Positions 22,105-55,024 of a stretch of 64,000 nucleotides of DNA are shown piece after piece. Below the pieces are notes generated by a model, which saw nothing but the letters and a program-made list of their open reading frames with translations, searched no databases and was not told the origin of the DNA. The stretch is from assembly GCA_023245355.1 (NCBI GenBank), contig JAHFKN010000004.1:25309-89308 (forward strand). The letters run 5' to 3'. Numbering within the stretch: the stretch's first letter is position 1; each line of letters begins with the position of its first letter. This stretch comes from Candidatus Gottesmanbacteria bacterium. GTDB taxonomy: Bacteria; Patescibacteriota; Microgenomatia; UBA10105; UBA927. The position numbers and the translations under genes are program-made.

Positions 22105-25100
22105 TCACTTTTTTATCTCTAATTCCGTATTTTCTCCGTTTCTCACAAATACGTGAATCGTCACTATTCCCGTCACGGTAATTCGTAGTTCCCCTATCGG
22201 TATCCGGTCGCTCGTCCGGTACATGGGTATCCATGTATCTTTCGGCACAGTGCCGAAGACAGATAACAATTTCTCATCAATATCCTTTTTATTCGGGGTA
22301 AATGACACCGTTCTTTTACGGTTTGCCTGCCCGACATCAATGGCTAATTCATCACTGACGGGACCCACCCACGAAAACCACCCTTCCGCATCCGTTGGCC
22401 CGGCGGGATCCTCTATTTGGTAGGCCAGATACCCGCGGACAATATTTTTCTTTGCTGATTCTGGAACCGGCACGGCGATATCAATAGAATGATCCTCACT
22501 CCCGGCTGCCGCCCCGATATCCAAAAGCACCAACATCCCTTTCTCATCTATGCTGACTTCATACGTAATGGGGTCGTTTAGCACATGCAGACGGTCTCCG
22601 ACAAAAAGCGGCACATCGCCTCCCGACATCACCTGCCCGTTTTTCATAATATCCCTGTTGTCGTAATCCCTGTGCACAATCAGCTGTTCCCCGATAACCT
22701 GTATCCGCATCGGTGTCGCTTGCGTAAGGTACACATCAATACTTGCTGACGGCGTCAATCTGGCTGACGGAGGTTGTAGAGGAGACTCTTTTACCTGTGC
22801 GGCATTCGTATCAATCATCACGTTGGGCGTATAAATCACGGCAAACGAAAGGTCGTCCTCATTCCGCACCCCCCATTGTATAAACGCGCTCATAAGCTGT
22901 GTGCGCGCGGCAGATTCATCAGGCGCATCATTCAGGATTCTGGCTACATCAGCCCGATGCCCCTCAGAAATAATCTTCTGGATACTGTCACTACCCACAA
23001 TCCATCTGCTGCCCGGCGGCATCTCGCGCTCTACGACATTGGCAACACTGCCATCATCCTCAAACATCTGCGGCGTTTCCCCTGTCGTGCCCGTTACTTT
23101 TATCTGGTATGCGGCTTTCCCGGCTTTTGTCGGAATATTAATCCACGCCAGATACGTACGCGCCTGTTCGGGAGTCAGCCTGCTGTTTTGCCGTTTTACA
23201 GCAGCGATCGCCTGCGGCAAATTCGGTACAGTTTTCAACACGCTCCGTAGCACATCGTCGGGCAGTGATCCTGCTTTGTATTGCGCGCGCTCATCGTCTT
23301 GTATACGCGCCCATGCGACTGCCTGCTCCGCCTGAGCAGTACTCAACCGGGTATTCATCAACAACAGATTATTCACATCCTCTTCTACGTTTTTGACTGT
23401 AGACAGAATTCTGTCAACGTCTGCTTTCTCTAACTCGCGCGGTTCATCAACACTGTCCAATTCCTTCGTTTGCTGGTTGTAGACAAACCGGTAATGGTTC
23501 CCGACCCGGTAATCCAGCATGTATTGTTTTCCGTCTTTCCGGTAAAAAAGAATGACGGAAAGTGTCGTACGCACTTTTTCTGAGGCCGTCGCATTGTAAC
23601 TCCGCATTTCCTGCGCATACAAATCCATGATCTGTGCCAACCTGTCGGTACGGGCATCCGTATCCAAAAATACGTTCGGGTCAAACCCGCTTCCAGTCAT
23701 ACGCCGGTATGTTTCTATTGCCCGTTCCCATGCTTCTTTCTGAATATCCGCTGATGCACGTCCCTGACTTGATACGCCATCTATATTTACGATGATGTCA
23801 GGGCCGGTGATGATGACATCCTCCCCTCCGATTGCATACGTTGCCCCCTGCGGAACCTCAGGAACAAATGCGGGCACTAATGACTTTCCTGCTTTTGCAA
23901 GTGCTGCGCCTACTGATTGTTGTGTGTTCGAAAGCGGCGTTCCCATTTTTATGCCGAGCAGCTCCCGCACCCTAGGATCCATAATGCCCAAATTCACGCT
24001 ATACGGACCGGATGTAAGTACATTCCATAATCTTCTCCACCATGGCAACGCATCCTGATATTTTCTGCCCGCCAACTCACCAATTGCGCGCTGCCATCGG
24101 AATGCACGCGTGACATCTTCATCGGATTCGAATTTGTTTTTGGGCGCAATTTGTTCCAATTGATCCTTCTCGCGGTCAGACACGCCTAATTCAGTGAGCC
24201 GGATACCCCCGCGTTTTTCTACCGTCACATCAGGATGCAGATACCGCCGGAGCCAATCCCATTCCCAATAGGGAATACCTTGTTTTGGCAATCTATTCTC
24301 AAAGAAATGAGCAGATATAGTCTGTAACGCGTCTTCATTTGCGCGGGACGCCAAAACACCCAGTGCCTCATCAAAAATCGCTATATTTTCCGTATCGGCA
24401 TCCGACTCACCCCCGGTATTGGCAAATGTCACATCCGTGATACCAAAACTCGGATGGGAATAGTATCTGTGACCGTCAATAGAAAGATCCGATAGCTCGT
24501 GCTGCAGCGCCTCACGGAACGCCTGTATATCTACTTGCGTTCCCTCAGGAAGAAAAATGACAAAATCATTTGCGGATTTATGAAATACGACAATCTGGTG
24601 AACTCCCAGTGATCCGAACACACGTTCAACAATAGGGACAAACTGTTTATGAATCATCTCGTCCCCTGCCAAATCCCCCAGATCCGTATTTACGTGTTTG
24701 AGCGTTCCTGCATAACTCACCTGCAATAGCCGGGCATTTCCGGGATATAATTCATGAGCCGACTTTATAGCACCTTTAGCATTTTTATGCACCAGCACTT
24801 TTGCGTTTGCATCAATCGTCCGGAAATACCGTTCCAAAACGCCTGCCGGCCCCTGTAACAAATCATCTACCAGTAACGTAGTGGTCAGTTGTGTCATGTA
24901 TTGCCTGAACTGCTGATGCACGCTGTTTCCAGTCTGACCCAATAACGAAATATCATGTATCAACAAGTTGATAAGCCCATAACTTCTGCGTAGATTATCC
25001 AGCGCCTCCGTGTATATAGCATCTCCTTCTATAGCAGCAGCAAGGGCATTCTGATCCACACGGGCGACATCTTCCATCGCTAATGATTCATCAGAAAGAT

Positions 25101-28100
25101 GTATGCCAAGCGGCCTGGATGTTATCCGTTTTCCGTCTTCATAAAACATCGTGTGTGTTCCTAATATTTCTCCAAACCGCGATATAAAATCGTCTGCTTC
25201 AGTATCCGTCACTGACTCATCGACGAATATGGCATACTTATCCCCTGCTACGCGGATGAGGCCGAAGCGGTTTGCCGCGTCATTCATGGCAATTCTTGTT
25301 TCGAAAAACACCGCAGCCATGTCTTTCAATAAATAATCTCCCAATAATTTTTGAGTTCTGGAATCGGCGAGGACATGATTTGCCCCGAACAGATTTTCAA
25401 TATCAATAACTTTGACAATCTTACGGTTTACATGCGACAGCAACGGCCAGGATTGGGACGTCCAAACAAGTTGAGGAGCATCTCCGTAACTGTTTACCTC
25501 ATCAATCCAGTCAGTCCGCACCTGGCTCCGGATGCTTAAAGGAAACATTTCACGGCTCAGTGGCCGGAGTTGTTTTTGATGTAATGCATCAAGAAAATAC
25601 TCATTATATAGATCTACCAATTCCGGGGCGCCGATAAGTATCTGATTCATTTGTGAGGCTAACTCTATGTCTCCCATACGGTTGATAAACTGTAAGAACG
25701 CGCGGAAAATCGCTGCCTTTACTATCTCCCGCTGCTGAACCCGCTGGAAGCTGTTCTCCTGTGCACTATACGCTTGCAACACCGGCGTCCTGCTGCGCTG
25801 TTGCAACTCTACAAACACATCACGGAAATCGTTGAGAAGCTGTTGGTGTGTCCAGGTGCCGTTCCCTGACACTGATGCAAACCGTTTGCGCCGGCCGCTC
25901 GGGGTGACCAGATCCATCACCGCAAATACCGTCCCGTCAGGCACTTTCACCGTATCAGCTGAGTATTCCGATATGGAATCGAACTCTGCTTCAGATACGA
26001 GTACAGGAGGGACATACGAAACAAGCGCTGTTCCGTTCATCGCCTGTATCATAGGACCGACATACGGCAGACGCAGTAATCCCAAACGCAAAAAGCGCTG
26101 GAGCCATATCGGAATATACCGGTTATTCGTCACCATAAACACGACACCCAAAAGCGACTCGTCCTGCGATCCGTTGATCGCCCGGACAGCCGTATTGAAT
26201 GCATCCGGCTCAATCCACTGGTTATCAGGAGTGATCATCGGTAATGTTTGCGGCTGGATTCTCCGCAACTCAACCGGGAAATTTTGCGCATCACTGCTTT
26301 CCGGATACGTAGGTACCATCGGCGAGATGATGGAAGAATCGTTTTTGAAATCCATATGAAGCGCTTCCAGTGTTTCCGCATATAAACGCGCAACCCCGCT
26401 GAAACGAAGCGTTCCGTCAACCGGTATCTGTAACACCGGATCCTCAACCTGAGTATTCATACCGGGAACATTCATCGTTCCCTGCTCCAAAATACCGTTG
26501 CTTAACGCAGCAAACATCCGGAATGCCAACACGCCCTCTACCACCAAATGATCGCCTGTTACTATGATGCCGCCGGTACCCGTCCGGGCAACCCGGAGCC
26601 ATGCATTCTGACTCTCCGTATATCTTCCGACATACCGCTCCGGATCAGCCGGCTGCTCGTCAATAACGACCATCGCCTCCCCCGGATCCGCTGCTATTTC
26701 ACCCTGTGCAATCAATCCGGCAATTTCATCCGCCGTAAATTCCCGGTCCAAAGGAACCCTGATACGCCGGAATCGTCCGTCTGCTTGTGCAATCGCAATC
26801 ACCGCTTCATCTTGGATAAGCTCCCTGGGATCATAGGCGGTCCTGTTTTTTGCTTCATTCACCCGTACAAACAGAGGCTGATTGTGTGCTCTGGCAGCAT
26901 CACTTCGGGCAAATTGCAGGAAGTTGACTATCAGTTGCGGCGCAAAGTCATCCTTTACCCGCATGTTTTTATATTCCTTGTGCAGCACGATCGCCCGTTC
27001 CCGCCGGGTCAGACTTCCCACCATATATTTCTCCCACTGCGTCATTTCGGAAACAGCCCGCGAATCGACGGCAAATTGCGGAGAAGAAATCCGCCTGATA
27101 CCCACAAGCAGCCAGTATAATCCGCGTGCCAGAGCCCGACGCATAGAGGAAGCGCGGAGAATCGGCAGATCGTTCATTGCTGCTGTAAGCTGCGTCGGTG
27201 TCGGCAATCCCATGCGCACCAACGACCGGTCATCGGTGCCGATTGCTACCCGTAGGCTTTCGCCGAACGGATACTGCGGCTGCATACGGATAAACAATCC
27301 TCTCACGCCCTCCTGTACTCCGCGCAGCTGATTGAGCATGCCCGCACGCCGGGCGACAGCCGGCCACCGTTCAATCGGCTCATGGGTAAATAATGCTACT
27401 GCTTCTTCACGGGACATAAACCGTCGGACACTAAACACCGCTTCTACCCCTGATGTGACCATGGCGTCGTACTGACGGTATTGCTGCGGGGTTCCCATGT
27501 GAGCCGCCAAAAGCGCATCAATTTCACCCGCATACTCTTCCCCGTATTCACGGATGACTTTTGCACGGATGACCCCCGCTTCAACGGGATAACTGTCATA
27601 TTGTCCCCCGTCTGCCTGACGTTTCGTGAGCGTTCGAATAATAAATGAAGAATCTTTCGCGAACGAATTATCCCGTTGGGCGGCATATGCAAGTATTTCC
27701 GTGCTTACGATATACCGGTATGTGCGGGCATCAAGATACGCAGCTAATCCTTCCCGGCGCTCTTCCTGGGTATTCCATGACCGCAATAATTCCGTTAACC
27801 GGTCGGTTGCCGGAGCAGAACTTCCGTCATTCCTGATGATGTCATACACCGCATGCTGCATCTCATGAATAACCATTTGTCTGCCGTACGCTTCCCCGTA
27901 CCGGCGGTTTATAAATATAACCGAATCGTTAAATGCTGGTATCAATGTTTTCCCAGGATGCAACCCGCTTGCGCCTTCATACGAAACCCCCTGTGCTACG
28001 ATACCGTCGTGCATGAGCTCGTGAGCATTCAACGCCGCTTTGCTAAAATCTGCAGCATCCAGTTCTATGATCACAAACGGGCCGCGGACGACCATGCTGG

Positions 28101-49100: not shown

Positions 49101-52100
49101 CTTCGATCATGCCGCCTGTCACTACCTGCTCTACCGGCAACCCTGCAGCATCATAGGTACCGGTCGGTACGGAAGATTTAACGGTGCCGTCCGGATTTAC
49201 ATACTTTTGCCAGATATCAACGGCGTCAGCAAGCGCACGCTCAGCGGGTGTCATTTGCGCAGGATCTTTTGTTAATGTTTTGTCTTTTGTCGCCTGGGTG
49301 ATAATCGAATTTGTCTGCGAAACAGCTTGTGCTGCCGCCCCGATCGCTGAACCAAGACGCGTCTGTACGTCAAGCTGGAGCGCTGCCCGGTTCGTTCCGT
49401 CTACATGCACGGTTTGACCGTTAAACGTAATGTCGCTCGGAAAGATAAGTGACGCGTTGCCTAACTCTACCGCGTCTGCCAGAGCCTGTGCGCGAGCAAC
49501 AAACGGGTCATCGATCCGTACAAGATCTGCCTGAGATTGGTGCAGGGCAGACTCACCGACAGACAAACCGGCCATCATGACGTTCGTGGCACAGCTTTCA
49601 AACGGAACCGTCCCGAGTGCTGCTGCCGTACACGCGACACCCGCTTGGGCAGTGTTTACGATTTGATCGGCGCGCATCAGCGTCCGTGCAGTTGCTGACT
49701 GCGGAGCGCTGGCTACAATCGGCGCCGTAACTAAACGGCCGGCAGAAACCATGGTCATGCCGGCAGACACCAGACAATCAGCGCTTAACCCAGTCTCCGC
49801 ACAGGTCTGAATTGTTTGGCTTCCGAAAACCGCTGTCCCCAACGCATTCCGTCCCATCTGCACGGCAAGCGGCTCACTTGATCCGCTGAATACCGTCCGT
49901 GCGAGATTTTGCGTAACGGCATTGGTTTGCTGAAGTAATACTTCCTGCGTTACGGCAACACGTCCTGCTTGCCGTGCTAACACGGCCAAATCAGCTACGG
50001 CAGCGTCTGCAGGCGAAATGAGCCGCGCAACCCCCGATAGTTTACTCCCGGTCGTTAATGCAATATCAGCGCTGTCCAGCAACGTCAGCGTACCCTGCTG
50101 AATCCGTTCGATACGGGCAACCCGCGCCATGGCGTTAAGTCCCCGGGATGCCGGCAAAATGGATGATGCGGCAAACAATGTCATACCCGCTGACTGCAGA
50201 CAGGCGCTCGTGTTCATATCCGCATGCATTGTGCACACCTGTGCCGTATCCTGAGCACTGGAACCGGTCATATAAATACTCATGGACTCCCCTGCAATCG
50301 CGAGCGCTGACTGCGCAGTCAGTGCCGCAGCCCCGAGCTGCGCAATCCGAAGCGGCGGCACAACAATTGCCACGGCAGTCATAACCGGCTTTGCCGTCAT
50401 CATGACCGGTGCCCGGATATTACGGTCATACCATGATGCATTCGGATCATCCCGTATCAGCTGTCCTTCAAGTAATGCACCGTTTTCAAATTTATTAAGT
50501 CCGATTGCTACGACAGCCAGCGGATCCGTCGCAACTATATGTTCGTATGCCCGCTGACCGGCTGCGATATCTACTGTTCCGTTAAGCACTCCCTCCAATG
50601 TCACGTCCACATTGCCGGAGGATAATAAAAATCTTGCATCCTCAGACTGTATATACGCGGAAACCTGCTCATGCTGATACTTCTGGATGGCGGATATATC
50701 GGTCGTTCCGAGTTTTTGCCCTACCTGTTGCTGCAATGACTCCTGTGCCGCAGGGTTCAGATTGACTATGTATGCACTGGCCAACGCATTTGCCTGGGCA
50801 ACTTGAATCTCTTTTTTCGCCTTATCAAACGCACTCTGCTCCTCAGGGGTGATAACCCCGACGACGGACGCCTGATGCATCGCCTGTTGTGCTTTCTTAT
50901 ATTCTGCGTTTGCCGTATCCAGACTCGTTTTTAACGCGTCCATGCTGTTGTTGCCGGAAAGAGCCGCGTTCACGACCCACTGGGGATCAATCGCCATCAG
51001 ATCTTTTGCCCCCTCAATCTTATAAACGCCGGTATTGATATTGTCCGTAATCGCATACCCGACCGCTACACGGTGGGTAAGAAAATCTTCCGTCGTCTGT
51101 TTTTTGGGATCGGCCGTCTTTTTCCATGTGTCATATTCGAGTTTGAGTTCCGGATCCGTTTTAAGTTGTATTTCAAAATTCTTGATAAGATCAGGATTGG
51201 TCGTTACGGCATAATCAACAACGACGACCGCTGATTGTTGTTGCTGAAGAGTAGCAAGCTCAGGGTTTAACCTCGTGGTAAATGCGCCGTTACTGACCGA
51301 ATTTGCGACACTGACAAGCGGCATGAGCGTCTGTTTCCAGGGTTCGATTGACGCCATCGCCCTATCCACACTGCGCTCACCTGATAATACCTGATTAAGA
51401 TACGCTGCTTCGCTGACAGGATCATCCGCACGTACCAAACCTAATTGCACCAACTTCGGTTTATTTTCATAATATTGCTGCATCTGATGCTCAAGATAAT
51501 CTTCAGTTGTAGTCCCCGGATTTGCTTTCAGCCATGCCTGTGCTTCGGGATTAGCGTTTTGTGCTGCTATATAGGTTTTTTTGTTGTCCTCAGGAAGCAG
51601 CGCGACATATCCCTGCGCCTGTGTCGTTGCGTCTTTTTCACTCATCCCGAACAGGTTGTTAAATGACGTTTTGGTTTTCGTAATAACCGTGTTTAACCAT
51701 GTTTCACCGACACGGGTTGTAGTTGTGGTGGCAGGCCCATACCCGGGAGGACGGCTTGCCATAACAGGATGTAATTCGTCATAGAGCGCCGTGGGCACAA
51801 CCTTCCCGGACTGCACGTCAGCTAAAAATGACAGATATTTGCCGTCAGCTTCCAGTTCCGGCCGGAGTTTTTCAATTGCGTCCATTTGCGCCTGATCAAA
51901 TGACGCCTGCCATATCGCTTCCGTTTTCCCGGCAGTGCTTCTTCCCTGTTGTAATTGCTCTTTTTTCCACTCTTCGTAGGCACTGGAATATTCACTGTCA
52001 GGATTCATAGCAACCAGCGATTGCGGAGCTGCCTGCTGCTGTTGTTGTTGCTGCTGCTTAACCGCATCGACAATCTGCGGCGCCACCTGTTTTTCCAGTG

Positions 52101-54639
52101 CTGTCCTGATAGCCCCCGCATTTGCCGAAACACCCGCAAACATAGAATCGTTTTTGTGGGCGTTGTAATATGCAAGCACATCGGAATCCGATCCGATATA
52201 TGCTTTTGTAAGATCAATTTGTGCAAACCCGTCATTGATAGCCCCAAGTGCGGCAGACGGCATGGCGGACCGGATCGTCGCCCGGGCAGTTGCGATGTCA
52301 CCGCATTTTGACGCAGCTGACGTAGTCGTAGCCAATTGTTTACAAAGCTCCGTTTCTATGCCGGGAACGCCGTTTTGCAGGTTATATACCACATTGTCCG
52401 CCCAATTCTGCGTGATGGCACCCGCATCGGCAGCGCTCAATCCCAACGCTGCTATCTGCGCTTGTTTTTTCTTCATCGGATCACATTTCGGATCGCTTCC
52501 GCACACTGCACTGTTCGGTTTATTGAGTATGTCTGATGCTGTTTGAAAGTCTTTGAACCGTTCTACCATCGCCAGAGTATCTTCTTTGGTCACTCCGGGG
52601 TAATTAAGTGCTGCCTGTACGTTTTTCTGATATCCGGAACAGACTGAGGTATTACCGGTATTCTGATCGAGACAGTTCTGATATGCGCTTTGCGCCGTAA
52701 GATATAGATTGGATACTTTTGATACGACATAATTGTGATAACTCGCATCGAGCGATTCCGTTTGCGTCGGGTCGATACCCGCCGAAGTCAGCGCATTATT
52801 GGCCTGCTGCAAATATCCCGCACAATTCGCGTCATTTGACTGCTGCTGGGTACACAATTCATATTTTTCCCGTGCGGCAAAGTATTTATCCTGCCCTTCA
52901 TACAGTTTGACCGTTGATGTAACCTGTGTTTTTGCCAACTCCTGAAATGCCTGAGATTCGACCGTAATGCCGTATTTGGCAAAGGCTTGGGATTCACAGG
53001 AACTTTGTGTACCGCCGTTTGCTTTACATGCATAAATATCCTGTGCAGCCTGGTTAACAGTGTTTTGGAACTTCGCCGATTCTTCTGTATATTCTTTTGC
53101 CAACCCTAAACTTTTAGGAATCACGGTTAACGGACAACCGGGACACTGCGCCCACATTCCTTCGGACGGATTCTTCGGATTCCGCACACATTGCCACCGC
53201 TGGTTATCATTCATGTCAGTCGCCGGACCATACTGCTCGCCGGTGGCAACATTTCCTTCCATTATGGCCGTTCCCCCGGCGCCGCCGCATGATACGGACG
53301 CCTTCGGTTTCACCGTCGGCGACGGAGTTGTTCCGGGATTGATTGCGACCACTGTAACGATCGGAGTGATTGTGGGTCTGACAGACGGCACCGTCGTCGG
53401 CACGGTCGGAACCTTTGTCGGAATCTTTGTCGGGGGTGACGTGACTGCTGCCGGCGGCTGAGTCGGCTTGGGGGTTGCTGGGGTCGTGGGAGCCGGCTTA
53501 CACGTACCTCCCCAAACGGTATACCCATACGGGCAATTATCCGAGCAATTTTTGTTACCCCCGCCTATCAGGACGCAGTCAGACCCCGGAGGCAATGTCG
53601 GTTTGGGGGTAACCGGCGGGGTTACGGATCCCTTTGTTGTCGCGACGATGGGTGCAGTCGTAGGTTTCGGGTTACATGATCCCCACGATGATCCGTACTG
53701 ACAATCACCACACAACAAGCCGCACCACTGGTCAGGCGCATGGGTAGGTTTCGGAGTTACTTTGGGCGTCGTCGTAACGGTCGGCTTGGGCGTAGTTTTA
53801 CAGCCGACACCGAAACCTAACCAGCAAAACGGGGCAACGGTCGGCGCTCCTCCGATTCCTGCCGTCAATATCGTCGGAAACGGCTCGCATTGATTTGTGG
53901 CGACATTGTATTTGGCTTTTCCTCCGCATTGATCTTTATTCAGTGCCGTCTGAGTAAGTAACGGCGGAGGCGTAACCGTTGTGTTGACTTTCTGAGACGG
54001 AGTCGGGGTTTTGCTCGCTGAGGCCATAGCAAGACAGCTGGTACGGGCAGCCGCTGTTCTCATACGTAAACATGCGGACCTGTCAAATGCAGGCGTGGCG
54101 GTAAGACGGGGCGTTATGGTGGTACGCGGTGTTACGGTCGTGCGCGGTGTTGAAGACGCCGCAATTCCGCACTGAGTGATACACGAATACGACCCCATAC
54201 ATCGCGCCAGACAGGTGTTATACGACGTTTGTGACGTCGTTGGCGTACGCGACGGAGTCGGCGTTTTTGTGGGTGTTTTTGACGGAGTCGGCGTTTTTGT
54301 GGGTGTTTTCGTGGGTGTTTTAGTCGGTATCTTTGTCGGTGATGAATATGCGGCGAATTGCCGTAACTCTCCCGTGCGGTCACGCTGGATCCGTACAATG
54401 GCTATAAATGTCGTTGCCGCAAACAGCATGAGAAGAATAAGCGGAAGAATCCGGATAAATCCCCTGCTCTTTTGTGGGGATCCGGAAAACAAACGTCTAT
54501 AACAATCTATAAAGAAGTGGAACACCGATGAGGCTGAGGATACTTCCGGCGCATGAGCAGACGAATGTAAGTCAAATCGATTATTGAAATCTTTAGATAA
54601 ATGCTCCAAAATGAACGTCAGATCACCCGGTGTCACCAA
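22105..54639 (-). CDS. Giant mosaic membrane-anchored protein, 10,844 aa. N-terminal TM anchor, PT-repeat and Cys-rich stalk, SF2-helicase-like ATPase, internal membrane region, PPP-type metallophosphoesterase, HExxH motifs, papain-fold modules and tandem degenerate GGDEF-fold domains
   Basis: A single open frame of 32,535 nt with no stop. Residue positions were mapped by counting and cross-checked against nucleotide anchors (K861 at 52057-59, K2313 at 47701-03, H4377 at 41509-11, H5532 at 38044-46, H8925 at 27865-67). The apparent start is a non-ATG codon (TTG 54639 or GTG 54636), preceded by an AGGGG SD-like element. Confidence 0.85.
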   Translation of the reverse strand: MVTPGDLTFILEHLSKDFNNRFDLHSSAHAPEVSSASSVFHFFIDCYRRLFSGSPQKSRGFIRILPLILLMLFAATTFIAIVRIQRDRTGELRQFAAYSSPTKIPTKTPTKTPTKTPTPSKTPTKTPTPSRTPTTSQTSYNTCLARCMGSYSCITQCGIAASSTPRTTVTPRTTITPRLTATPAFDRSACLRMRTAAARTSCLAMASASKTPTPSQKVNTTVTPPPLLTQTALNKDQCGGKAKYNVATNQCEPFPTILTAGIGGAPTVAPFCWLGFGVGCKTTPKPTVTTTPKVTPKPTHAPDQWCGLLCGDCQYGSSWGSCNPKPTTAPIVATTKGSVTPPVTPKPTLPPGSDCVLIGGGNKNCSDNCPYGYTVWGGTCKPAPTTPATPKPTQPPAAVTSPPTKIPTKVPTVPTTVPSVRPTITPIVTVVAINPGTTPSPTVKPKASVSCGGAGGTAIMEGNVATGEQYGPATDMNDNQRWQCVRNPKNPSEGMWAQCPGCPLTVIPKSLGLAKEYTEESAKFQNTVNQAAQDIYACKANGGTQSSCESQAFAKYGITVESQAFQELAKTQVTSTVKLYEGQDKYFAAREKYELCTQQQSNDANCAGYLQQANNALTSAGIDPTQTESLDASYHNYVVSKVSNLYLTAQSAYQNCLDQNTGNTSVCSGYQKNVQAALNYPGVTKEDTLAMVERFKDFQTASDILNKPNSAVCGSDPKCDPMKKKQAQIAALGLSAADAGAITQNWADNVVYNLQNGVPGIETELCKQLATTTSAASKCGDIATARATIRSAMPSAALGAINDGFAQIDLTKAYIGSDSDVLAYYNAHKNDSMFAGVSANAGAIRTALEKQVAPQIVDAVKQQQQQQQQAAPQSLVAMNPDSEYSSAYEEWKKEQLQQGRSTAGKTEAIWQASFDQAQMDAIEKLRPELEADGKYLSFLADVQSGKVVPTALYDELHPVMASRPPGYGPATTTTTRVGETWLNTVITKTKTSFNNLFGMSEKDATTQAQGYVALLPEDNKKTYIAAQNANPEAQAWLKANPGTTTEDYLEHQMQQYYENKPKLVQLGLVRADDPVSEAAYLNQVLSGERSVDRAMASIEPWKQTLMPLVSVANSVSNGAFTTRLNPELATLQQQQSAVVVVDYAVTTNPDLIKNFEIQLKTDPELKLEYDTWKKTADPKKQTTEDFLTHRVAVGYAITDNINTGVYKIEGAKDLMAIDPQWVVNAALSGNNSMDALKTSLDTANAEYKKAQQAMHQASVVGVITPEEQSAFDKAKKEIQVAQANALASAYIVNLNPAAQESLQQQVGQKLGTTDISAIQKYQHEQVSAYIQSEDARFLLSSGNVDVTLEGVLNGTVDIAAGQRAYEHIVATDPLAVVAIGLNKFENGALLEGQLIRDDPNASWYDRNIRAPVMMTAKPVMTAVAIVVPPLRIAQLGAAALTAQSALAIAGESMSIYMTGSSAQDTAQVCTMHADMNTSACLQSAGMTLFAASSILPASRGLNAMARVARIERIQQGTLTLLDSADIALTTGSKLSGVARLISPADAAVADLAVLARQAGRVAVTQEVLLQQTNAVTQNLARTVFSGSSEPLAVQMGRNALGTAVFGSQTIQTCAETGLSADCLVSAGMTMVSAGRLVTAPIVASAPQSATARTLMRADQIVNTAQAGVACTAAALGTVPFESCATNVMMAGLSVGESALHQSQADLVRIDDPFVARAQALADAVELGNASLIFPSDITFNGQTVHVDGTNRAALQLDVQTRLGSAIGAAAQAVSQTNSIITQATKDKTLTKDPAQMTPAERALADAVDIWQKYVNPDGTVKSSVPTGTYDAAGLPVEQVVTGGMIEAARRSVEMSQRVVATEQAATTLHDPRSFAERVRDQVLGREPTEVRDYRAAIDAFEEIAKTTDPSSPVYSEALSHVQSAEETATTYTYTAAQKTYADQLKTTKETLVGLDEQIIAAEDRIQLFDKPDISEDIALRTKQVDDANRALTDLRARNASDEAIAIAERSVSRAQEALDRVNAVATERDLHPNVAERRTIAAQIETQELAPLQQQAKVVAAKAESLRASVAYAGTLRGKFSEFVSNITKTPNTGRGIADVLSGRAIQEQSLDARYNYIVAEERRAEAESLKRTLEAEGKPVPAELEQSIKDLEIKSADALAAFESVQARANRSLFVRISKIFGGARVADIQLRTVDTVGKLRVTAEAIRNDGFRVVRGEDNTLMLEDTTGKGRKPSRAASQRLADVSKFLDTLETNWSAINGKGTDLRMSGPNNPDGRLDQSGIFYDAIFDTQIDGSAGVMGVLYDGATGLGKSSFLLNAIADSKVVLTGTKVHVLATTWADVQGMIREYGPQVHSRNGVKAVYYNMQGREVTFFDAASNTVVTLDGKDARAVRAMADADVVYSATVETPYEFHASRADDPLTQAFLKTTKDAMLLVDEFDVIAAGTRFSSGGQMQELVSQKSPGLVQKYRSMYEANAVRSFEDMAVAVQTRKSSVELFTRSGEHNVLADNDTAQGMYRDMVTEAARQAFDASKAQGDTRSFDQFLSENRISVDDAGNPRTNPRDVVAAFDRYYKSGDTPSAFKSEFGERVGAMNAIIEHASRSTNGYGFDANNQLVYGDGGGRLQNTRPQEALAALALETVGYRIQEAMRGNNVDHSDVALRIDTVTVSNQGESSTWKQILSSGHYSPRLYGFTGTPDSVVLDAKLSLGMTLKVPNPDFTSRNLIFGDNAVRQFAWKKVSALANMIIGDLAEGQAARVILDLKEVGREIALGQVLSEARRMGPDVEVIVVNNDNNVAETRKVQVYKDGVYVRSIEGDSSGTSIEKFTAEYALKNRGNKRFIVVYDQGSGRGTDIKGVFEPHQMSPDGKTLLKGSGDPEYVFTSERTGTTTDVVQDIGRAREIAKDGTVYLLSDTDARINKEFALDIFEGNELSAKQNALTNALRQGYDDLVKNSIDLLNDISARTNGGAPLMVTREGKTMSLSEALKLEYDKVAGINDSLSQSSQLGSEAIDQAARRARDFINHIKELPEFKQLSLEARQYYFDTMYNSGERVAIAITDTAAPETRASLQNVLRVDQRTALINENIRVSDIATSVSRQGRDTAAVTTQERVEAITRAASPFADPVGQQVALDSLGRAETLVDQISRGRSLSGSDAFSLSLANVAAAQLARAKIELEAAKARLPIRTQTVDTLGTIRKGDILVGTDQSALTGAHTIENGTRVVWNAADGSEQSQTIDDTSVFTLPAGVKSVKLVTGNIETVIDVSSGPAALQTVQTISAPEFGPLYNLNSKLAQVAAQMDRLGKATSPQIAEALKKDAEKKVAEQLNKSGIQVTEDILRGSAYARAVAAFVAYEQAIARAASSLSSESLAGNPQQTVLSLADSARENLRAAMESLFVMHTPAITNAAVKQAFTDLAVVRGAAVGSDIAVSDQAEKVHIQTDSHKNVLVTSYRQRTDGIISQVIDGLSGRFVRDGIARQRRNVNGVIAATSRAKWVAARWAGVTSVGRALVSMPTAFQLAFRRVAPQYSQTRTAPNAQSLQQPQSVTTQWQDIGTAYDMSFGAHPFGLLGQVFTRLITGKGEWATPQQLGAAAVWGATRIGPFFIGQPWIGIAFLANDILLQPPTRMIAAAVRAANVALTVPTIQNFFHGDWTLPLMNSPKFSQTLKNINAGSRTGTLESMVNATPFAIGDPQWNPLRAILQTVQWTTSLVTAAPIRLAWDTYRIGRAISNRNQPALTLTSYIQSVDNWDMKGFEFFILPKAWTNATPRNNARVWLISRPLLSIAGIFFPPLHAISGPLWAYDLQRLADDGLAGWKKFWAAPNGKTVWWIPRSEWTQGSLIAPVQTTQPTTIRQFVSRVITASPRTDKAIFWISRGIALFPGPFWGARALAVFGFDLSRLVATLVASSPRALTGVENLFAKSGGLYSFLNASITKGFGGIVWYAVSRVILLPMIVAVLGMAFGAIGIAGIIPAFLVTLFVPFIIGYDTLRVGLWAHHLAQVTPRPAFSAKGTSPIMPEEQQLIQLEGELQTLLDTAASRQKEVLDAEKQLAALHADFDAINTLKNEDNPEERRRVAEEAYQQALTTQQQADEAVMSAQAALESANAQVAAIALEIESVQPVPVSPVVTAPTQEEEATILQQKNARAYTQLREAYQSKLTLAVHNIGVQMQQFARAQSEIDPVSLMSDFEGRVREEIFAKGFGSPVFRSYQIEQLVRLGLSDQEANQVYDEFGRNIIIPSLGKVTATILSGIKWDEKTIAEHVVISEIDAALYRLILADVHADPEQVEQVLLSRGAITVDAQHEWHVKDPRILMTFLGDYFDRGIKFIDGRLTVRPYLKSGYFAQYARQPGLELLRRLTTLRDEARRMGGDMLLMGGNHEVQFLWAALSDPNSPSFEGGGLFARNGVDPEEVRQARENVTSLRKLLASLDWISLRSGGDIMQHSDSAIYAKYIFMEPAFADLRDSEEVDINDLRRVRERIQALGLSADDVVKRINANISAIIARGNTTQLENLFRSLTHHGQLQGSQMLSDYYRSLFVTDVNTHAIAPRILHGHNPAAPKSYNNGTVLGLDDKLSRAYKGSDFVFLDATSPFGSQGVQRVTEEINTTVYSYRYDTPVVNTFTPETYTFAPFTVSVFDQISAFWRRPQGAQPIPSRQLTAQQQEQLQNLQARLAAANEFVRKQSEALQTARSAAQAALQAVVNAKANAESGAVIDYEAKLREIEKDIKAAEAMVSRAQDAYISGKQKADAASQLVAAQKQMNEFLETIRGQGVAIGRLDLRALWGNTSAIVQAFNNLVSSVVAREQQHLTALQALEKALVAGVVPGAGFVRDVISATTLLDSVTQAIATEEQRLAFEAGTLIVQVPVPSAPVTTTPEVDLTGYTLTGVVLPAGVAQGLGIDVIAQYTNANGTVLEIKGRVRGNGINRSTWNIDLEGVKTPVTVSESQFIYTTVYTAAPAGVSGGADVGALVANLFGANVEAQMLSSAQINPLLCSDCSDFVENVIMPLFAKAHQARSVGQTDSAIGYLNDIMSAIQQHEDNHRPGSGHEDAGKPVNTILFNIVRYLVHTKEADIFDAPDEVALADRARQNARTARALAMNAVRAELAGKSAKQANEVFAFIRAQRKADLSLIRTMTDAASAERTLTAIKAEITGQSSSVLRNLWNLAADAILGNDPLKEYEQEILEAEKKIEELKKAAPAVAPAGDTTEKKQFPPAIQSVIDRITAGRSSRQNTTLEKSVASVKLGKAATDYYEVRRFIGRYAQFTNHISDFIRANGYDKNSVLTATALRSLKSEYDRLGFDFTETEISQFTTLNTEIGSAGLIQKDMETKVAHLLGVTINLREVADEYISRMYGDAAENKRTVEGLVTLYKTSIAKQRLKNTRDGGHLDLSNLTNLQAALLQSIESRVNGGVYRDDRALTEVTDDELYLAAASMRLSYQDILSSFGTLSNYFDLNIAVHNYLNQTVEDKTGHRFAFGSGRYAVPFTVLDAKLGIVYDTADAADVVGFQSKQLSGHFVLTSQFNNTEMLVNTLAHEMIHERQVQNLSINKSQEQTYIEAFTSGLAQLVVPDAQFIAYGTGVARVLEAVNLLRKAGVEERAILDSLATTADTGYTYLLRGGSSMVPPFGTLFDSQFGQGAFKAWMSEEVSGYYQNADAWFYSPEEYSPRDHAAISGYHALYIQTAKRVFDEKPAGVALGGETVFSEAWFSGMGKGNDYAIYKRRLDRYNALIALDEFMRSEAETLTDAAQADMQGNIQITQRLMENIGNGDFSVLDQPVFDLKALVPGADTSSMEKFEAATAFFDELSTVADMEVYARLSRDTARLQQIADAIARGEYGHYGAELQEKVTQAGNKILSKLRSRYQGLSLGAEDNIDETEKLISAFDADVQKITILPEEQRKRAAGSFERKLRIQYIEASIRIIRDQESYMHKTLQDVPQQWYDAVDNQNVSELRTVTAEVRQKVQETRAAYDAWLLTEFPKAKSEEIRDQLRALVSARRAIIASPADRAADILRAAYEAELRNPGLPIFVPEDIFIRLIEETETYKNLEEAGQLRREIQDLQNFILRTIAEARTTWINEDSTPVLADAVTGIILNRFTTFHISPDKFLAAWNSKVNVKVGTIHQLMEHMIAGVDNTGPEAGETYTRLSEPILRQVFDPMVAYLGQLNQRTAAVDQTTTGGQSTLELLENGIDAYNRTAPPERRYSRRTGSQMGRYDVLQSVEERLNDFLDQLTKWGMTFDEGVPPAAPREFIATNIRQRAGREALALSRAQQQKRSRGARAMNERRRSITFAITRGIPDGWRQLIAPIVTDMLVGVMPPVGVLEAWRDPHVQVAWETLLGLFADARELAPLTPHIIRAVMRNPYRAQALLTDITAVVRALGEESWTTEAQGIGVVRESLSPLLEETVGFEAERFTGYIRHVIADRAALDEFYDLLSRVASDERLVAEARGQHRETMLRDRIRMLLIDGGIMETGINTTELESWVSEIYASLEAPAPAPQSTIRDLMDEMAARFGLDATKDNAMLDAVFADISGATGELVLPRLTDLQEELDTNPRWDEAQAAIQRQFTQVRANPDAVRALLTIYMRTLISMTVNPTAQIPAVVRQEQLTLEILEEANSGWVRSAEETEQIFRGLHAAQITTELLQQLFPNDVQYRQPTDETLAHITQTYGISEDNFAQLITDIAHYLWLLKPGEPGGKNEQPAGGAPAPGIPPREEEPIPPEITLPDAVAMLVADLQNPMAAQERMLELASDVRTIFEVTGKTSYPILLSPVQSAEQLLLSDGRSLIREEEAAVNEVPVVVDGGSGNNGLSVPRSRSDVARFTATSKLQSKDVIPMLSLRFGIDTQVLESLIEKEGVDTDKINPIVLLTTGLRLISENRLWNLSTNAVVSTLNEVTYFIEQHGRIFTTGNDRSRVVEELLRILRLEMSRTETDLARRAGIASGLNLNIIRLENTKANRDAARSILDEFGIPYNSKRDFYETPQMVNFRLIESLPPGVAERFGITDENFSEDRYREALASLTEEELFQTDTNIHARMTGSNYDWTGSVAFERSRVSDVISRLYDRVPRFIESLISFIPRRIKSSQSIIPLIPMWMHFVPFSASQNAIYDVQSVNLGTVDLVRAIEKIQRMPWYTRPVRILGVTNPTMALFVIRTLGFQLDQQLQITTIEGVKLQGGAALAYIESHQEEFTSQDKQIHIAIATPRLIRVMESDTMKRLVTRAKRNERATRLTAILARTVGVDPEIIRQAAQRQTPEPQIIPEELQSTEMTEESNVIFASQLEALRKEQIVLRTAIENRIGTISRGRGANRTATYGHEEEYALLTELLRSPTLDTGSPARTEDIAALRSRLIAAYELFRVTPEETKGFADLMGIRGAEIRTQVRAALRTWVAEGRVIDRNDAEFRDRVVREVSTAYPIRPAAISQDHWETLFAVYIQDRLLEYVGQHEAWVTFVQSAVDTAIEDQIRVHNYSDLALIQQNVVRHLSGAPVSPLIESVRAALVTSMVRETADARTFGLITRITGDSAANIIVGAIAGNAQARAVVERLARGEKVKTQEINDVVTAVLTGIDTSLYKGNIRNNTRKWITALGSIYGAKDRGQTPAVTRGQRGDLLPSVLVPAGPRKQIAPLRDQISGLFTRNNILIAVEIAAGLGFLAAIAMMVPQYGSLVQTRLPQISGMIAAVLAILFGLQSVGWRVFESLEKVFAQVTIKMVSGVLALALLLSQVPAMKGYSERIQDYLASRQQSSNVITDQQEQPSEILVLPPVSNSGSGPSAAVPVSVSSLGYETDVTQALVTYVKSQRTYGTSTAQQNRMVDDVRKLYESLEATLGKGNVNGINARLVLAGAQVVDITNEQGTVIARVVTYPSDGQPSGSLLHDDVFPSATTEERGAQTAAIPLSQIQSGLPGSKSSGYVIALPQAGGFTCYIHTLTAAISLIDAETATTGTVPVVIDPLLYAELLSPEAQSRDSLTMDPAIVEKYLNHGGGTKSEQALALLNLGVQEGKGKTEFASILKNMGYQLSDETIPVISQSKTRYEVTQSVFLEMVSKHPSIQYEIKDGKVILYVPSADLRESLLRVMMGQQEAAYKGVAHGTIISLNSSKVTEHSLVYLGFVERDGEVFVRLADGLMTSFINPSTWGVYAGIEKDEATGTYLMPVDTFLAKFKGVQVLSPAGTKPLSVPAQSAAVSQPEEVQPPVIEAQPPVAETLPQVPTALPRLPAAGARTILGPAAKTQAAIMSNVFADILNEWQSSPDRDTVTPSEALKTGLVDRGFETLARELDRADYDAYDFLDDLFTSQRNVWPDQEVQCVAFANLLVESGLVDFNIPISAIGGEVAKSMAGDELSNDPDGLVFRGEYYVLRVQSQQDLQTYGPGHFFVVYNKGSKNPGHIAYIDTNEAGIQTFTVYDANYKFANGKVTGDGIIRGETLTFDQFVAKYGAIAEGRGRSQIAILLTQEEGGALAAARQQGSVPGTNLSLSSVFVGVAYTAVQRPFRFVQRIFAGRALKSSEVAAGNPGAIQRSLRANIALARAMLRLEGQQTDKRWFTRVTASLGVMWRGLWQFDETMQVLIPQGIGKLIPASEPAPQSPQFRQQSRPWIDPQLALAAVRSGRALRNAYTPVTRPAKQFVRAAAKRVRQQACGGSALRLIPLVFAQDPQGANDCPVGRVIDSVTPIIEEGMEPPAAVILESMDPEKPVTRSVWGFQQLIPEFLQKPYLFTRFRESISAVPIRRGETFDVSEWITTMRQTPPNSWERRMTKAAFDKKYAYYRVGLARLEAEVRELLIANPQADDEAIRAVYDQYQITYGFTRPVRDEMVRIVERYRTQQQIIGRAASAYPDGQTFIKAVFGTDVGAETSMVVRGPFVIIELDAADFSKAALNAHELMHDGIVAQGVSYEGASGLHPGKTLIPAFNDSVIFINRRYGEAYGRQMVIHEMQHAVYDIIRNDGSSAPATDRLTELLRSWNTQEERREGLAAYLDARTYRYIVSTEILAYAAQRDNSFAKDSSFIIRTLTKRQADGGQYDSYPVEAGVIRAKVIREYGEEYAGEIDALLAAHMGTPQQYRQYDAMVTSGVEAVFSVRRFMSREEAVALFTHEPIERWPAVARRAGMLNQLRGVQEGVRGLFIRMQPQYPFGESLRVAIGTDDRSLVRMGLPTPTQLTAAMNDLPILRASSMRRALARGLYWLLVGIRRISSPQFAVDSRAVSEMTQWEKYMVGSLTRRERAIVLHKEYKNMRVKDDFAPQLIVNFLQFARSDAARAHNQPLFVRVNEAKNRTAYDPRELIQDEAVIAIAQADGRFRRIRVPLDREFTADEIAGLIAQGEIAADPGEAMVVIDEQPADPERYVGRYTESQNAWLRVARTGTGGIIVTGDHLVVEGVLAFRMFAALSNGILEQGTMNVPGMNTQVEDPVLQIPVDGTLRFSGVARLYAETLEALHMDFKNDSSIISPMVPTYPESSDAQNFPVELRRIQPQTLPMITPDNQWIEPDAFNTAVRAINGSQDESLLGVVFMVTNNRYIPIWLQRFLRLGLLRLPYVGPMIQAMNGTALVSYVPPVLVSEAEFDSISEYSADTVKVPDGTVFAVMDLVTPSGRRKRFASVSGNGTWTHQQLLNDFRDVFVELQQRSRTPVLQAYSAQENSFQRVQQREIVKAAIFRAFLQFINRMGDIELASQMNQILIGAPELVDLYNEYFLDALHQKQLRPLSREMFPLSIRSQVRTDWIDEVNSYGDAPQLVWTSQSWPLLSHVNRKIVKVIDIENLFGANHVLADSRTQKLLGDYLLKDMAAVFFETRIAMNDAANRFGLIRVAGDKYAIFVDESVTDTEADDFISRFGEILGTHTMFYEDGKRITSRPLGIHLSDESLAMEDVARVDQNALAAAIEGDAIYTEALDNLRRSYGLINLLIHDISLLGQTGNSVHQQFRQYMTQLTTTLLVDDLLQGPAGVLERYFRTIDANAKVLVHKNAKGAIKSAHELYPGNARLLQVSYAGTLKHVNTDLGDLAGDEMIHKQFVPIVERVFGSLGVHQIVVFHKSANDFVIFLPEGTQVDIQAFREALQHELSDLSIDGHRYYSHPSFGITDVTFANTGGESDADTENIAIFDEALGVLASRANEDALQTISAHFFENRLPKQGIPYWEWDWLRRYLHPDVTVEKRGGIRLTELGVSDREKDQLEQIAPKNKFESDEDVTRAFRWQRAIGELAGRKYQDALPWWRRLWNVLTSGPYSVNLGIMDPRVRELLGIKMGTPLSNTQQSVGAALAKAGKSLVPAFVPEVPQGATYAIGGEDVIITGPDIIVNIDGVSSQGRASADIQKEAWERAIETYRRMTGSGFDPNVFLDTDARTDRLAQIMDLYAQEMRSYNATASEKVRTTLSVILFYRKDGKQYMLDYRVGNHYRFVYNQQTKELDSVDEPRELEKADVDRILSTVKNVEEDVNNLLLMNTRLSTAQAEQAVAWARIQDDERAQYKAGSLPDDVLRSVLKTVPNLPQAIAAVKRQNSRLTPEQARTYLAWINIPTKAGKAAYQIKVTGTTGETPQMFEDDGSVANVVEREMPPGSRWIVGSDSIQKIISEGHRADVARILNDAPDESAARTQLMSAFIQWGVRNEDDLSFAVIYTPNVMIDTNAAQVKESPLQPPSARLTPSASIDVYLTQATPMRIQVIGEQLIVHRDYDNRDIMKNGQVMSGGDVPLFVGDRLHVLNDPITYEVSIDEKGMLVLLDIGAAAGSEDHSIDIAVPVPESAKKNIVRGYLAYQIEDPAGPTDAEGWFSWVGPVSDELAIDVGQANRKRTVSFTPNKKDIDEKLLSVFGTVPKDTWIPMYRTSDRIPIGELRITVTGIVTIHVFVRNGENTELEIKK
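24340..25422 (-). other. Giant protein: tandem degenerate GGDEF-fold (nucleotide-cyclase palm) domains (aa ~9740-10100)
   Basis: Domain 2 reads VSYAGTLKHVNTDLGDLAGDEMIHKQFVPIVERVF...VVFHKSANDFVIFLPEGTQVDIQAFREALQHEL, aligning with GGDEF consensus blocks (DIDhFKxINDtyGHxaGDevL ... RyGGDEFaillP.t..e.a...ae.iR). Domain 1 reads IDIENLFGANHVLAD...LIRVAGDKYAIFVDE. The GGDEF signature is replaced by SANDF and AGDKY. Confidence 0.55.
27853..28023 (-). other. Giant protein: paired HExxH motifs 52 aa apart (NAHELMHDG aa 8873-8877; VIHEMQHAVYD aa 8925-8929)
   Basis: Two HExxH motifs in 'AHExxH' contexts. About 0.3 HExxH are expected by chance in 10.8 kaa, and three are observed. Confidence 0.4.
29410..29772 (-). 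other. Giant protein: putative papain-fold Cys/His module 2 (aa ~8290-8410; QCVAFANLL ... GHFFVVYNKG...GHIAYID...VYDANY)
   Basis: The Cys8301 to His8367 spacing (~66 aa) and an HFFVVY beta strand followed by D/N resemble C39/transglutaminase-like papain-fold peptidases. Confidence 0.4.
30295..30927 (-). other. Giant protein: putative papain-fold Cys/His module 1 (aa ~7905-8115; GGFTCYIHTL ... HSLVYLGFVERDGEVFVRLADG)
   Basis: Cys in a GxxC context followed by a His-hydrophobic beta strand resembling the C39-like 'HwvVl..........DP' pattern. Weak. Confidence 0.3.
31465..31743 (-). other. Giant protein: second TM cluster (aa 7633-7725), three hydrophobic helices
   Basis: ILIAVEIAAGLGFLAAIAMMVP, ISGMIAAVLAILFGLQSVGW and FAQVTIKMVSGVLALALLLSQV. 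Confidence 0.5.
38032..38046 (-). other. Giant protein: HExxH motif 1 (LAHEMIHERQ, aa 5532-5536), zincin-like candidate
   Basis: A HEMIH pentapeptide with a Q three residues after the second His. Confidence 0.35.
40960..41832 (-). other. Giant protein: calcineurin-like/PPP-family metallophosphoesterase domain (aa ~4270-4560)
   Basis: Motifs in canonical order and spacing: DVHAD (4277-4281), GDYFDRG (4316-4322), GNHE (4375-4378), LHGHN (4549-4553). Confidence 0.7.
42685..43960 (-). other. Giant protein: internal membrane-embedded region (aa ~3560-3985) with Trp-rich hydrophobic segments and a clear TM hairpin
   Basis: GIVWYAVSRVILLPMIVAVLGMAFGAIGIAGIIPAFLVTLFVPFIIG (aa 3938-3984), preceded by WxxW-rich hydrophobic stretches (FFIGQPWIGIAFL, IFWISRGIALFPGPFWG). 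Confidence 0.55.
46060..47742 (-). other. Giant protein: SF2 helicase-like ATPase module (aa ~2300-2860), ResIII/HsdR-like motif set
   Basis: Walker A GATGLGKSS (aa 2307-2315), Walker B/DExD LLVDEFD (2436-2441), motif III-like GFTGTP (2693-2698) and motif VI-like QGSGRGTD (2846-2853). Confidence 0.5.
52041..52064. repeat. Trinucleotide run (CTG)3(TTG)3(CTG)2 encoding poly-Q8 (aa 862-869)
   Basis: ctgctgctgttgttgttgctgctg on the plus strand, equal to (CAG/CAA)8 on the coding strand. Confidence 0.8.
53110..54357 (-). other. Giant protein: mucin-like stalk (aa 95-510) of PTKTPT repeats and P/T-rich linkers separating small Cys-rich modules
   Basis: PTKIPTKTPTKTPTKTPTPSKTPTKTPTPS, followed by modules such as CLARCMGSYSCITQCG, CGGKAKYNVATNQCEP, WCGLLCGDCQYGSSWGSCNP and CVLIGGGNKNCSDNCPYGYTVWGGTC. 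Confidence 0.7.
54251..54310. repeat. Perfect 30-nt tandem direct repeat (x2, 1 mismatch) encoding KTPTKTPTPS
   Basis: The unit gacggagtcggcgtttttgtgggtgttttt occurs at 54251-54280 and again at 54281-54310. Confidence 0.8.
54394..54459 (-). other. Giant protein: N-terminal signal-anchor TM helix (aa 61-82, FIRILPLILLMLFAATTFIAIV)
   Basis: A 22-residue hydrophobic stretch preceded by basic residues (KSRG), which fits an N-in orientation. Confidence 0.6.
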
Positions 54640-54758
54640 ACCCCTACAACATCAGGTGGTCTCTTATTACTATGATGAAGTTACGTGCGTAGTGTCAATA
54701 GTCCACTTTCGGGTATTGACAAATATAAAATTTCTCTCCAAACTAAAACGTAGAGAGT

Positions 54759-54974: not shown

Positions 54975-54997
54975 TCGTTACGAGTGGTTTTTACCAA

Positions 54998-55023: not shown

Positions 55024-55024
55024 G

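Follow-up and report, generated by a model that had tools for sequence, protein, structure and literature searches.

The window analysed here, a stretch of 64,000 nucleotides from a Candidatus Gottesmanbacteria bacterium (contig JAHFKN010000004.1, positions 25,309 to 89,308 of the forward strand), contains on its minus strand one open reading frame (ORF) of 32.5 kb that encodes a protein of more than ten thousand amino acids (aa). Judged from its conservation in related genomes, this giant ORF is a genuine, selectively maintained single gene. Its backbone is conserved, while at least four slots and the C-terminus are shown by alignment to be replaced wholesale between relatives. We consider it reasonably likely that the product is a lineage-specific giant multi-pass envelope protein, i.e., a platform that spans the membrane and acts by remodelling or engaging a cell wall. 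A more specific proposal is tentative: the protein would belong to an undescribed membrane-spanning family of 11 to 16 thousand residues, the slots of which are re-equipped by recombination, and this family would form a reconfigurable envelope or host-interface apparatus made of a single polypeptide and independent of the giant proteins of Omnitrophota. How bacteria with small genomes such as those belonging to the candidate phyla radiation, or CPR (Patescibacteria), build their envelopes and engage their hosts is a central question. For this interface, a prime candidate is a conserved gene that occupies about 3% of a genome of about 1.2 Mb, experiences strong purifying selection and escapes every domain library.

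The frame is free of stops over 10,844 codons and ends with one terminal stop. The remaining two sense frames over the same DNA contain 1,144 stops, or 0.053 per codon, and the probability of so long an open frame by chance is therefore about 1e-255. The gene caller of the source contig, a 118-kb ENA metagenome contig, likewise reported one gene, of 10,697 aa, starting from a later ATG. The GC content of the ORF, 0.47-0.54, resembles that of the flanks. An earlier note on this DNA had described a single, non-repetitive ORF that does not encode a repetitive adhesin. This was correct: tiled self-BLASTP revealed no internal repeats at E<1e-3, and Tandem Repeats Finder saw in the ORF just short repeats of Pro/Thr (PT) linkers, with periods of 12-30 nt, at 53405-54341 near the 5' end. 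Nor does the protein have the long tandem arrays of Ig, cadherin or RTX adhesins.

The gene is found elsewhere. JGI contig Ga0172375_10000139, which stems from a different sample, shows the same gene order with a giant gene at the same place. This orthologue was rebuilt from three overlapping pieces, the overlaps being identical, and its frame is open over 12,307 codons. Over 9,500 codons, or 87.6% of the ORF, it aligns collinearly to the protein of the window, the identity being 61-88% and about 87% overall. Across these codons the ratio of nonsynonymous to synonymous substitution rates (dN/dS) is 0.077-0.22 at a dS of 0.7-1.4, which implies strong purifying selection on the frame wherever the pair can be compared. 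In four more loci (L007, L008, L010 and L011), one frame stays open across the whole 20-25 kb fetched for each. Three further genomes, found via homologues of the neighbouring Rho gene, have called giant products of 12,670, 13,555 and 15,708/15,735 aa, which in their N-terminal parts share 31-71% identity with the window's protein. In all, at least seven independent genomic instances have the frame intact. Given these data, the ORF can hardly be an assembly chimera, a fused pseudogene or a product of chance. Admittedly, the contig is a short-read MEGAHIT product. Yet independent assemblies from ENA, JGI and NCBI (the latter metagenome-assembled genomes, MAGs) yield intact syntenic ORFs, and dN/dS is about 0.1; together with the negligible chance probability, this effectively excludes an artefact, including the chimera that the earlier note had worried about.

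The locus has a fixed order: DUF2298, Rho, LysM/M23, two tRNA-Ala genes, giant gene. The synteny of DUF2298, Rho, LysM/M23 and giant gene is also seen in the three genomes found through Rho, and Rho itself is 72-97% identical across syntenic loci. Among named organisms, close relatives of the Rho in the window come from Candidatus Gottesmanbacteria (92% identity) and 'Patescibacteria group'. One member of the giant family resides in Gottesmanbacteria UBA6580. Two members are found on contigs of 1.17 and 1.22 Mb, and the gene for the 13,555-aa product makes up 3.3% of the latter. Another MAG with the DUF2298-Rho-M23-giant-gene synteny (L010/L012; CAZNKB010000003.1, GCA_964573695.1) is titled 'uncultured Gammaproteobacteria bacterium'. 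This label is almost certainly wrong, since its Rho is 82% identical to the Gottesmanbacteria-type Rho of the window and the synteny is shared. A distant member, P0019 on L018 (JBHPHI010000003.1, GCA_042569595.1), has other neighbours, namely PilN/PilO, ribosomal protein S20, MurJ and LepA. The family thus reaches beyond the Rho-linked locus, and it probably extends past the Gottesmanbacteria clade sampled. P0019 is not a compact version of 4,366 aa, as one might think; it is cut by the contig end.

The proteins are mosaics. The window's protein and its 87%-identical orthologue are collinear in the blocks aa 1-4093, 4660-6237, 6492-6779, 7248-8208 and 8210-10842. The segments in between show no detectable similarity (Table 1). 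In slot 1, the window carries a PPP phosphatase module; the orthologue, L010 and UBA6580 carry a HopA1-family domain, L007 an FHA domain and P0019 both FHA and PPP. Slot 4, which is empty in the window, is filled with an NAGPA phosphodiester glycosidase (E 1e-30) in L010. A CrtO-like membrane acyltransferase and a further FHA domain are also present in L010, and in UBA6580 a hydrophobic segment is followed by LCP and GDSL/SGNH domains. The HopA1, FHA, NAGPA, CrtO, LCP and GDSL cassettes of the relatives all exceed the Pfam thresholds. Because cassettes are replaced block by block between relatives, the 'mosaic' that the earlier note had read from the composition of one protein has become concrete. 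The blocks do not diverge in step either. Their identities to L010 amount to 72% (aa 1205-3187), 30% (3285-3537), 62% (3536-4113), about 47% (4660-6250) and 69-72% (7221-8449), which suggests different histories for different blocks. With whole in-frame cassettes differing at fixed positions, the family is a natural experiment in protein modularity. The orthologue's extra C-terminus (L002:13212-17852, minus strand) is Cys-poor and L- and A-rich, and finds no Pfam match but ECSIT_N at E 0.008; it may be a helical-repeat module.

In the PPP module of the window's protein, all catalytic motifs occur in order: DVHAD (4277), GDYFDRG (4316), GNHE (4375), QHSD (4440) and HGHNP (4550). The top Pfam match, Metallophos (PF00149), reaches 17 bits (E 0.008), the gathering threshold being 21.5 bits. 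The homologous segment of P0019 (BLASTP E 5e-52, 32-39% identity), which keeps the motifs and adjoins an FHA domain (E 1e-19), scores 31.6 bits to Metallophos and so exceeds that threshold. The motifs are also conserved in P0022. With a three-sequence profile, the best three PDB matches were entries of the cold-active PPP phosphatase of Shewanella (1V73, 2Z72 and 2ZBM; E 0.006-0.011); the alignment covers the motifs and a shared Asp-Gly-x-Trp insertion. By motif and profile, we regard the PPP-type phosphoesterase proposed in the earlier note as an established member of the PPP phosphatase family. It resembles the Shewanella-like phosphatases in its DxH, GDxxDRG, GNHE and GH motifs and in the said insertion. 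It differs from them in being one 300-aa cassette within a protein of 10,800 aa, in its insertion of about 25 aa between motifs II and III, and in its sub-threshold score.

A second characteristic of the protein is its predicted association with membranes. Hydropathy indicates at least six strongly hydrophobic transmembrane (TM) segments, spread across 7,700 residues, and weaker conserved ones. The N-terminal signal anchor that the earlier note had assigned is indeed present and conserved. The two further membrane regions it had seen correspond to the conserved clusters at aa 3936-3987 and 7634-7719, but three TM regions are too simple a picture of the topology. The PT/Cys-rich stalk following the anchor was also described aptly: aa 1-500 consist of 13% P, 16% T and 4.4% C. 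Of the 45 Cys residues, 39 precede aa 1684, and all paired ones are found up to aa 1683. We infer that the stalk (aa 87-780) is extracytoplasmic; by analogy, it is possibly O-glycosylated. The low-charge region aa 1401-1700 is a candidate for crossing the membrane. It contains three units of the type C-x9-12-C-x3-AGM-hydrophobic, whose conservation extends as far as the distant P0019. These units could be hairpins, either re-entrant or at the membrane surface, in which disulfides close the loops.

Other modules are recognised by their motifs. In the candidate SF2/SecA-type ATPase, GATGLGKS (2310), LLVDEFDV (2438), YGFTGTP (2694), GSGRGTDI (2850) and QDIGRAR (2895) follow each other in the proper order, with a long insert between motifs II and III. 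They are intact in the orthologue and in L010 and align with those of the distant subgroup B, where motif VI is degenerate. A pair of Walker-A and DELH motifs at aa 899/954 was dismissed as a P-loop, because its surroundings are Q-rich and helical and no strand comes before it; it looks like a chance occurrence. HExxH occurs four times in the protein, as compared with 0.15 times expected. A predicted all-beta domain at aa ~4869-4939 (39822-40035, minus strand) lies just upstream of the region with the invariant CSDC and HExxHxxGxxH; it is the sole piece that two single-sequence AlphaFold models predicted confidently (pLDDT 62-89). In the CHAP-like set, QC8301VAF, GH8381IAY and YD8399AN occur in the correct order and are invariant in three members. 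The tandem degenerate GGDEF-fold domains of the earlier note, finally, are not supported: the whole giant protein contains no GG[DE]EF motif and no Pfam match to PF00990, even at E<=10.

In sequence space the family stands alone. Overlapping tiles of the giant protein gave nothing above threshold in Pfam, and a Pfam pass at E<=10 added the sub-threshold Metallophos match and noise alone. NCBIfam gave no match. Whole tiles had no match among PDB sequences either (phmmer/hmmsearch). Domains of glycosyltransferases (GT), methyltransferases (MT), glycoside hydrolases (GH), peptidases or NUDIX enzymes were not detected in the giant protein at E<=10. A megasynthase of the non-ribosomal peptide or polyketide type was considered and rejected, as A, C, KS, AT and carrier domains are absent. 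An exhaustive HMMER search with aa 4100-5299 over 1.84 billion representative proteins found 8 sequences, all of them fragments of the giant family. Thus, the earlier note was right in matching the protein to no named family, and the Pfam, NCBIfam and PDB tiles revealed no characterised giant family to which the whole protein would belong. A word-indexed protein search returned 8,000 candidates with no matches, though relatives of 87%, 55% and 34% identity are publicly available. As it did not recover even the known orthologue, its silence is not evidence of absence, and similar giant families may systematically be missed by such searches. Missed hits, truncated starts and a mislabelled MAG together imply that giant genes of this kind are likely under-reported.

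How might such a protein work? The N-terminal TM segment would anchor the stalk outside the cell. The stalk would probably be O-glycosylated by the PMT-family transferases encoded nearby, as is assumed in analogy to actinobacterial Pmt. In Actinobacteria, secreted segments rich in Pro/Thr are O-mannosylated by enzymes of the PMT family, so that the idea of a glycosylated stalk is open to testing. Via the low-charge region aa 1400-1700 the chain would re-enter the cytoplasm, where the SF2/SecA-like motor (aa 2290-2900) may drive the export of the protein's own long extracytoplasmic segments. The cassettes of slot 1, PPP here and FHA or HopA1 in relatives, would link the machine to phospho-Ser/Thr signalling on the cytoplasmic side. 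The C-terminal third, which follows the cluster of three TM segments at aa 7634-7719, would again be outside and be engaged in wall-active chemistry, with a putative CHAP-like amidase and zincin motifs in the window's protein and NAGPA, LCP and SGNH domains in relatives. The wall in question could belong to the cell itself or to the host that these episymbionts are thought to live on, and the exchange of cassettes would create strain-level variation. The modules can be placed inside and outside without contradiction among them: paired Cys residues are confined to the part up to aa 1683, FHA and PPP are located between the TM clusters, a hydrophobic segment precedes LCP in L011, and NAGPA follows the three-TM cluster in L010.

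Several points weigh against this scheme. More than 95% of the giant protein could not be assigned to any domain. Its topology was deduced from hydropathy and from the logic of domain types, and the paired Cys residues at 1469-1683 fall after the proposed inward crossing. Glycosylation of the stalk is proposed by analogy with actinobacterial Pmt, and self-export by the motor by analogy with the SecA hypothesis of West-Roberts. The SF2 helicase-like ATPase of the earlier note stands as a set of ordered motifs, but the region found no helicase or SecA match in Pfam or PDB-profile tests. A ResIII match appeared in L010 alone (E 0.1), and hhalign of the ATPase profile with E. coli SecA gave a probability of 0.3%, in a comparison of low power, the effective number of sequences (Neff) being 1.4 and the template a single sequence. 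The HExxH and papain-fold modules of that note fared similarly: the motifs are there, yet Pfam offers just matches of E 0.04-0.13 to SprT-like, M76 and eCIS_core for the zincin motifs, the profile of the block 4660-6237 drew a blank in PDB, and the CHAP-like region of three members hit no Pfam family at E<=10 and nothing in PDB. Single-sequence AlphaFold models of the ATPase region (pLDDT 36) and of the HExxH region (pLDDT 52) are too poor to use. Last but not least, the wall-enzyme cassettes LCP, SGNH and NAGPA are found in relatives, not in the window's allele.

Some other interpretations have to be considered. In the sense of the 'archaeovorins' of Omnitrophota, the protein might be an apparatus that adheres to the wall of a host or prey and digests it, the variable cassettes being its weaponry. 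CPR bacteria are inferred to be episymbionts, and giant surface proteins have been implicated in their attachment to hosts. The architecture is similar, with many TM segments, a motor-like ATPase and a phosphatase; NAGPA and SGNH cassettes in relatives and the CHAP-like motif set in the window fit as well, and rapid turnover of cassettes suits an arms race between host and parasite. LCP and PMT families, however, act on the cell's own envelope, and so do LCP enzymes in the family and the PMT, YfhO and GT genes that flank it. Moreover, purifying selection is strong overall, and the window's allele lacks any recognisable glycoside hydrolase or peptidase. We therefore regard an attack function as a serious but rather unlikely explanation. 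That the protein is a passive structural fibre, an adhesin or an S-layer-like coat, in which the enzyme-like motifs are inactive relics, is improbable. The mucin-like PT/Cys stalk and the long A/Q-rich helical stretches would suit a fibre, as would the near absence of enzymes detectable by hidden Markov models (HMMs) and the degenerate ATPase motif VI of subgroup B. Against a fibre speak the lack of tandem structural repeats, the TM segments spread over 7,700 residues, the catalytic PPP motifs kept between members that are just 32-39% identical, the invariant HExxHxxGxxH residues and the bona fide enzyme cassettes of relatives.

Even less probable is an effector of the polymorphic-toxin or contact-dependent-inhibition type, in which a conserved scaffold carries a variable toxic C-terminus that is neutralised by the product of an immunity gene. 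As in Rhs, CdiA and MafB, a conserved body is combined with wholesale replacement of modules including the C-terminus: close orthologues differ there by about 1,528 aa with a sharp junction, internal cassettes are swapped, relatives contain the HopA1 'effector' domain, and faint matches to eCIS_core and Imm74 were noticed. But RHS/YD, haemagglutinin or other delivery repeats are not found. The gene 3' of the giant ORF is no immunity gene; it encodes a convergent PIG-L deacetylase, which is kept in both the window and the orthologue's genome. Multi-pass membrane integration and chromosomal synteny would be atypical of a toxin, the slots are internal as well as terminal, and the variable modules are of the signalling or wall-enzyme type. 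The envelope platform described above remains the reading that we prefer.

The closest known kind of protein is that of the Omnitrophota ('archaeovorin-type') and Actinobacteriota giants, although no homology has been demonstrated. In these, divergent SecA-DEAD domains occur along with Ser/Thr phosphatases and domains that degrade walls (10.1101/2023.11.21.568195). Common to both are a single ORF of at least 10,000 aa, an origin from ultra-small or uncultivated bacteria, a non-repetitive sequence, many TM segments (here one at aa 60-85, two at 3936-3987, three at 7634-7719 and weaker ones) and long stretches that defy annotation. In outline, they further share an SF2/SecA-like ATPase (here a candidate, at the motif level), a Ser/Thr phosphatase, wall enzymes (here in relatives) and a proposed surface role. 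The earlier note's impression that the ORF recalls giant genes of uncultivated lineages is borne out to this extent. The differences are equally clear. The present family belongs to the CPR, and SecA_DEAD, GGDEF, NUDIX, GT, MT and GH domains are not HMM-detectable in it. With 10,844 aa here and 12,307-15,735 in relatives (10.8-15.7k versus >30k), its members pass the 10,000 aa of a 'large' protein and stay below the 30,000 aa of the archaeovorin type. The survey of West-Roberts does not describe replacement of cassettes in fixed slots, and it does not list the CPR among the phyla rich in proteins of >10,000 aa (10.1101/2023.11.21.568195). Within the CPR, large surface proteins of the episymbionts Vampirococcus lugosii (PMC8080830) and Absconditicoccaceae (PMC13059738), of up to about 4,200 aa, have been proposed to function in host recognition and attachment. 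Like the Gottesmanbacteria proteins, they are membrane-anchored and very large. They are, however, built from WD40, PKD, fibronectin and integrin domains, which the Gottesmanbacteria family lacks; the latter is about three times larger and multi-pass.

Table 1. Features of the giant gene, its product and its surroundings in the window
Feature	Residues (aa)	Position	Strand	Remarks
Whole giant ORF	1-10,844	22105..54639	-	10,844 codons plus stop; product of 10,806-10,844 aa depending on the start
Promoter-like TTGACA-18-CATAGT		54669..54698	-	About 30 nt upstream of codon 1, in a stretch near-identical in the orthologue; weak lead
Short N-terminal tail and TM anchor	1-86	54382..54639	-	TM aa 60-85, Kyte-Doolittle (KD) hydropathy 2.69; kept in orthologue, P0017 and L016
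Mucin-like stalk	87-780	52300..54381	-	PT-rich linkers alternating with small paired-Cys units
A/Q-rich, Cys-poor region	781-1400	50440..52299	-	Conserved family-wide; sub-threshold GA_3 the sole domain match
Low-charge region	1401-1700	49540..50439	-	12% KRDE versus 22% overall; weakly hydrophobic segment 1412-1441
Candidate SF2/SecA-type motor ATPase	2290-2900	45940..47772	-	Motif level alone
W/P/F-rich hydrophobic domain	3560-3992	42664..43962	-	Ends in the TM pair 3936-3987; among the best-conserved blocks of the family
Variable slot 1	4094-4659	40663..42360	-	388 unrelated aa in orthologue; follows a conserved TM hairpin
PPP-family (Shewanella-like) metallophosphatase core	4270-4560	40960..41832	-	Inside slot 1
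Backbone block	4660-6237	35929..40662	-	78% identity to orthologue, about 47% to L007, L010 and L011; invariant CSDC (4991)
HEDNHRPGSGH	5035-5045	39505..39537	-	Matches metzincin-type HExxHxxGxxH; H, E and H invariant in 4 aligned members
TLAHEMIHE, zincin-type motif	5532-5536	38032..38046	-	Kept in P0017 and orthologue; weak SprT-like and M76 matches
Variable slot 2	6238-6491	35167..35928	-	Unrelated 571-aa segment in orthologue
Variable slot 3	6780-7247	32899..34302	-	About 50 aa in orthologue
Three-TM cluster	7634-7719	31483..31740	-	Kept in orthologue and L010
Slot 4	8208-8210	upstream of CHAP-like set	-	Empty in the window; 233-aa insertion in orthologue
CHAP/NlpC-P60-like motif set	8290-8410	29410..29772	-	Motif level alone; just downstream of slot 4
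Two more HExxH (HELMH and HEMQH)	8873-8929	27853..28023	-	Weak eCIS_core match alone
C-terminal junction TEL/EIKK plus stop	10838-10844	22105..22128	-	Orthologue continues for about 1,528 aa from exactly there (after TEL)
Two tandem tRNA-Ala genes (anticodons GGC and CGC)		55024-55175	-	Between LysM/M23 gene and giant ORF, directly upstream
Neighbours: DegT aminotransferase, hexapeptide acyltransferase, GT2, two PMT_2, YfhO, dTDP-sugar isomerase		335-21207 and 58498-62670
Neighbours: NPCBM protein, PIG-L deacetylase, DUF2298, amine oxidase		335-21207 and 58498-62670

The start of the giant gene is ambiguous over 38 codons. The first possible start is TTG. In codons 1-18 the DNA is identical to that of the orthologue, and all 4 changes in codons 19-29 are synonymous. 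The near-identity includes about 35 nt 5' of the ORF (window 54640-54700, minus strand; L004 ~15830-15885), unlike the rest of the pair, where dS is about 0.9. Such a stretch points to conservation of a promoter, leader or translation-initiation element. Together with the promoter-like element upstream, the conservation of codons 1-29 favours TTG/GTG at codons 1-2 as the start. Codon 39, however, is GTG in the window and ATG in the orthologue, and it is the called TTG start in L016, so that the ambiguity persists. Directly 3' of the stop, no terminator-like site was found.

Around the giant gene, envelope-glycosylation genes are seen at 335-21207 and 58498-62670 of the window. Rfam detected no RNA families apart from the two tRNAs. 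A mechanically called ORF at 54584-55111 on the plus strand is spurious, as it overlaps the tRNA-Ala pair. Finally, ORFs of 500-780 aa that have no Pfam match are kept in the orthologous contig; in the window they are located at 3289-4884, 4844-6451, 11471-13120, 14500-16083 and 18859-21207.

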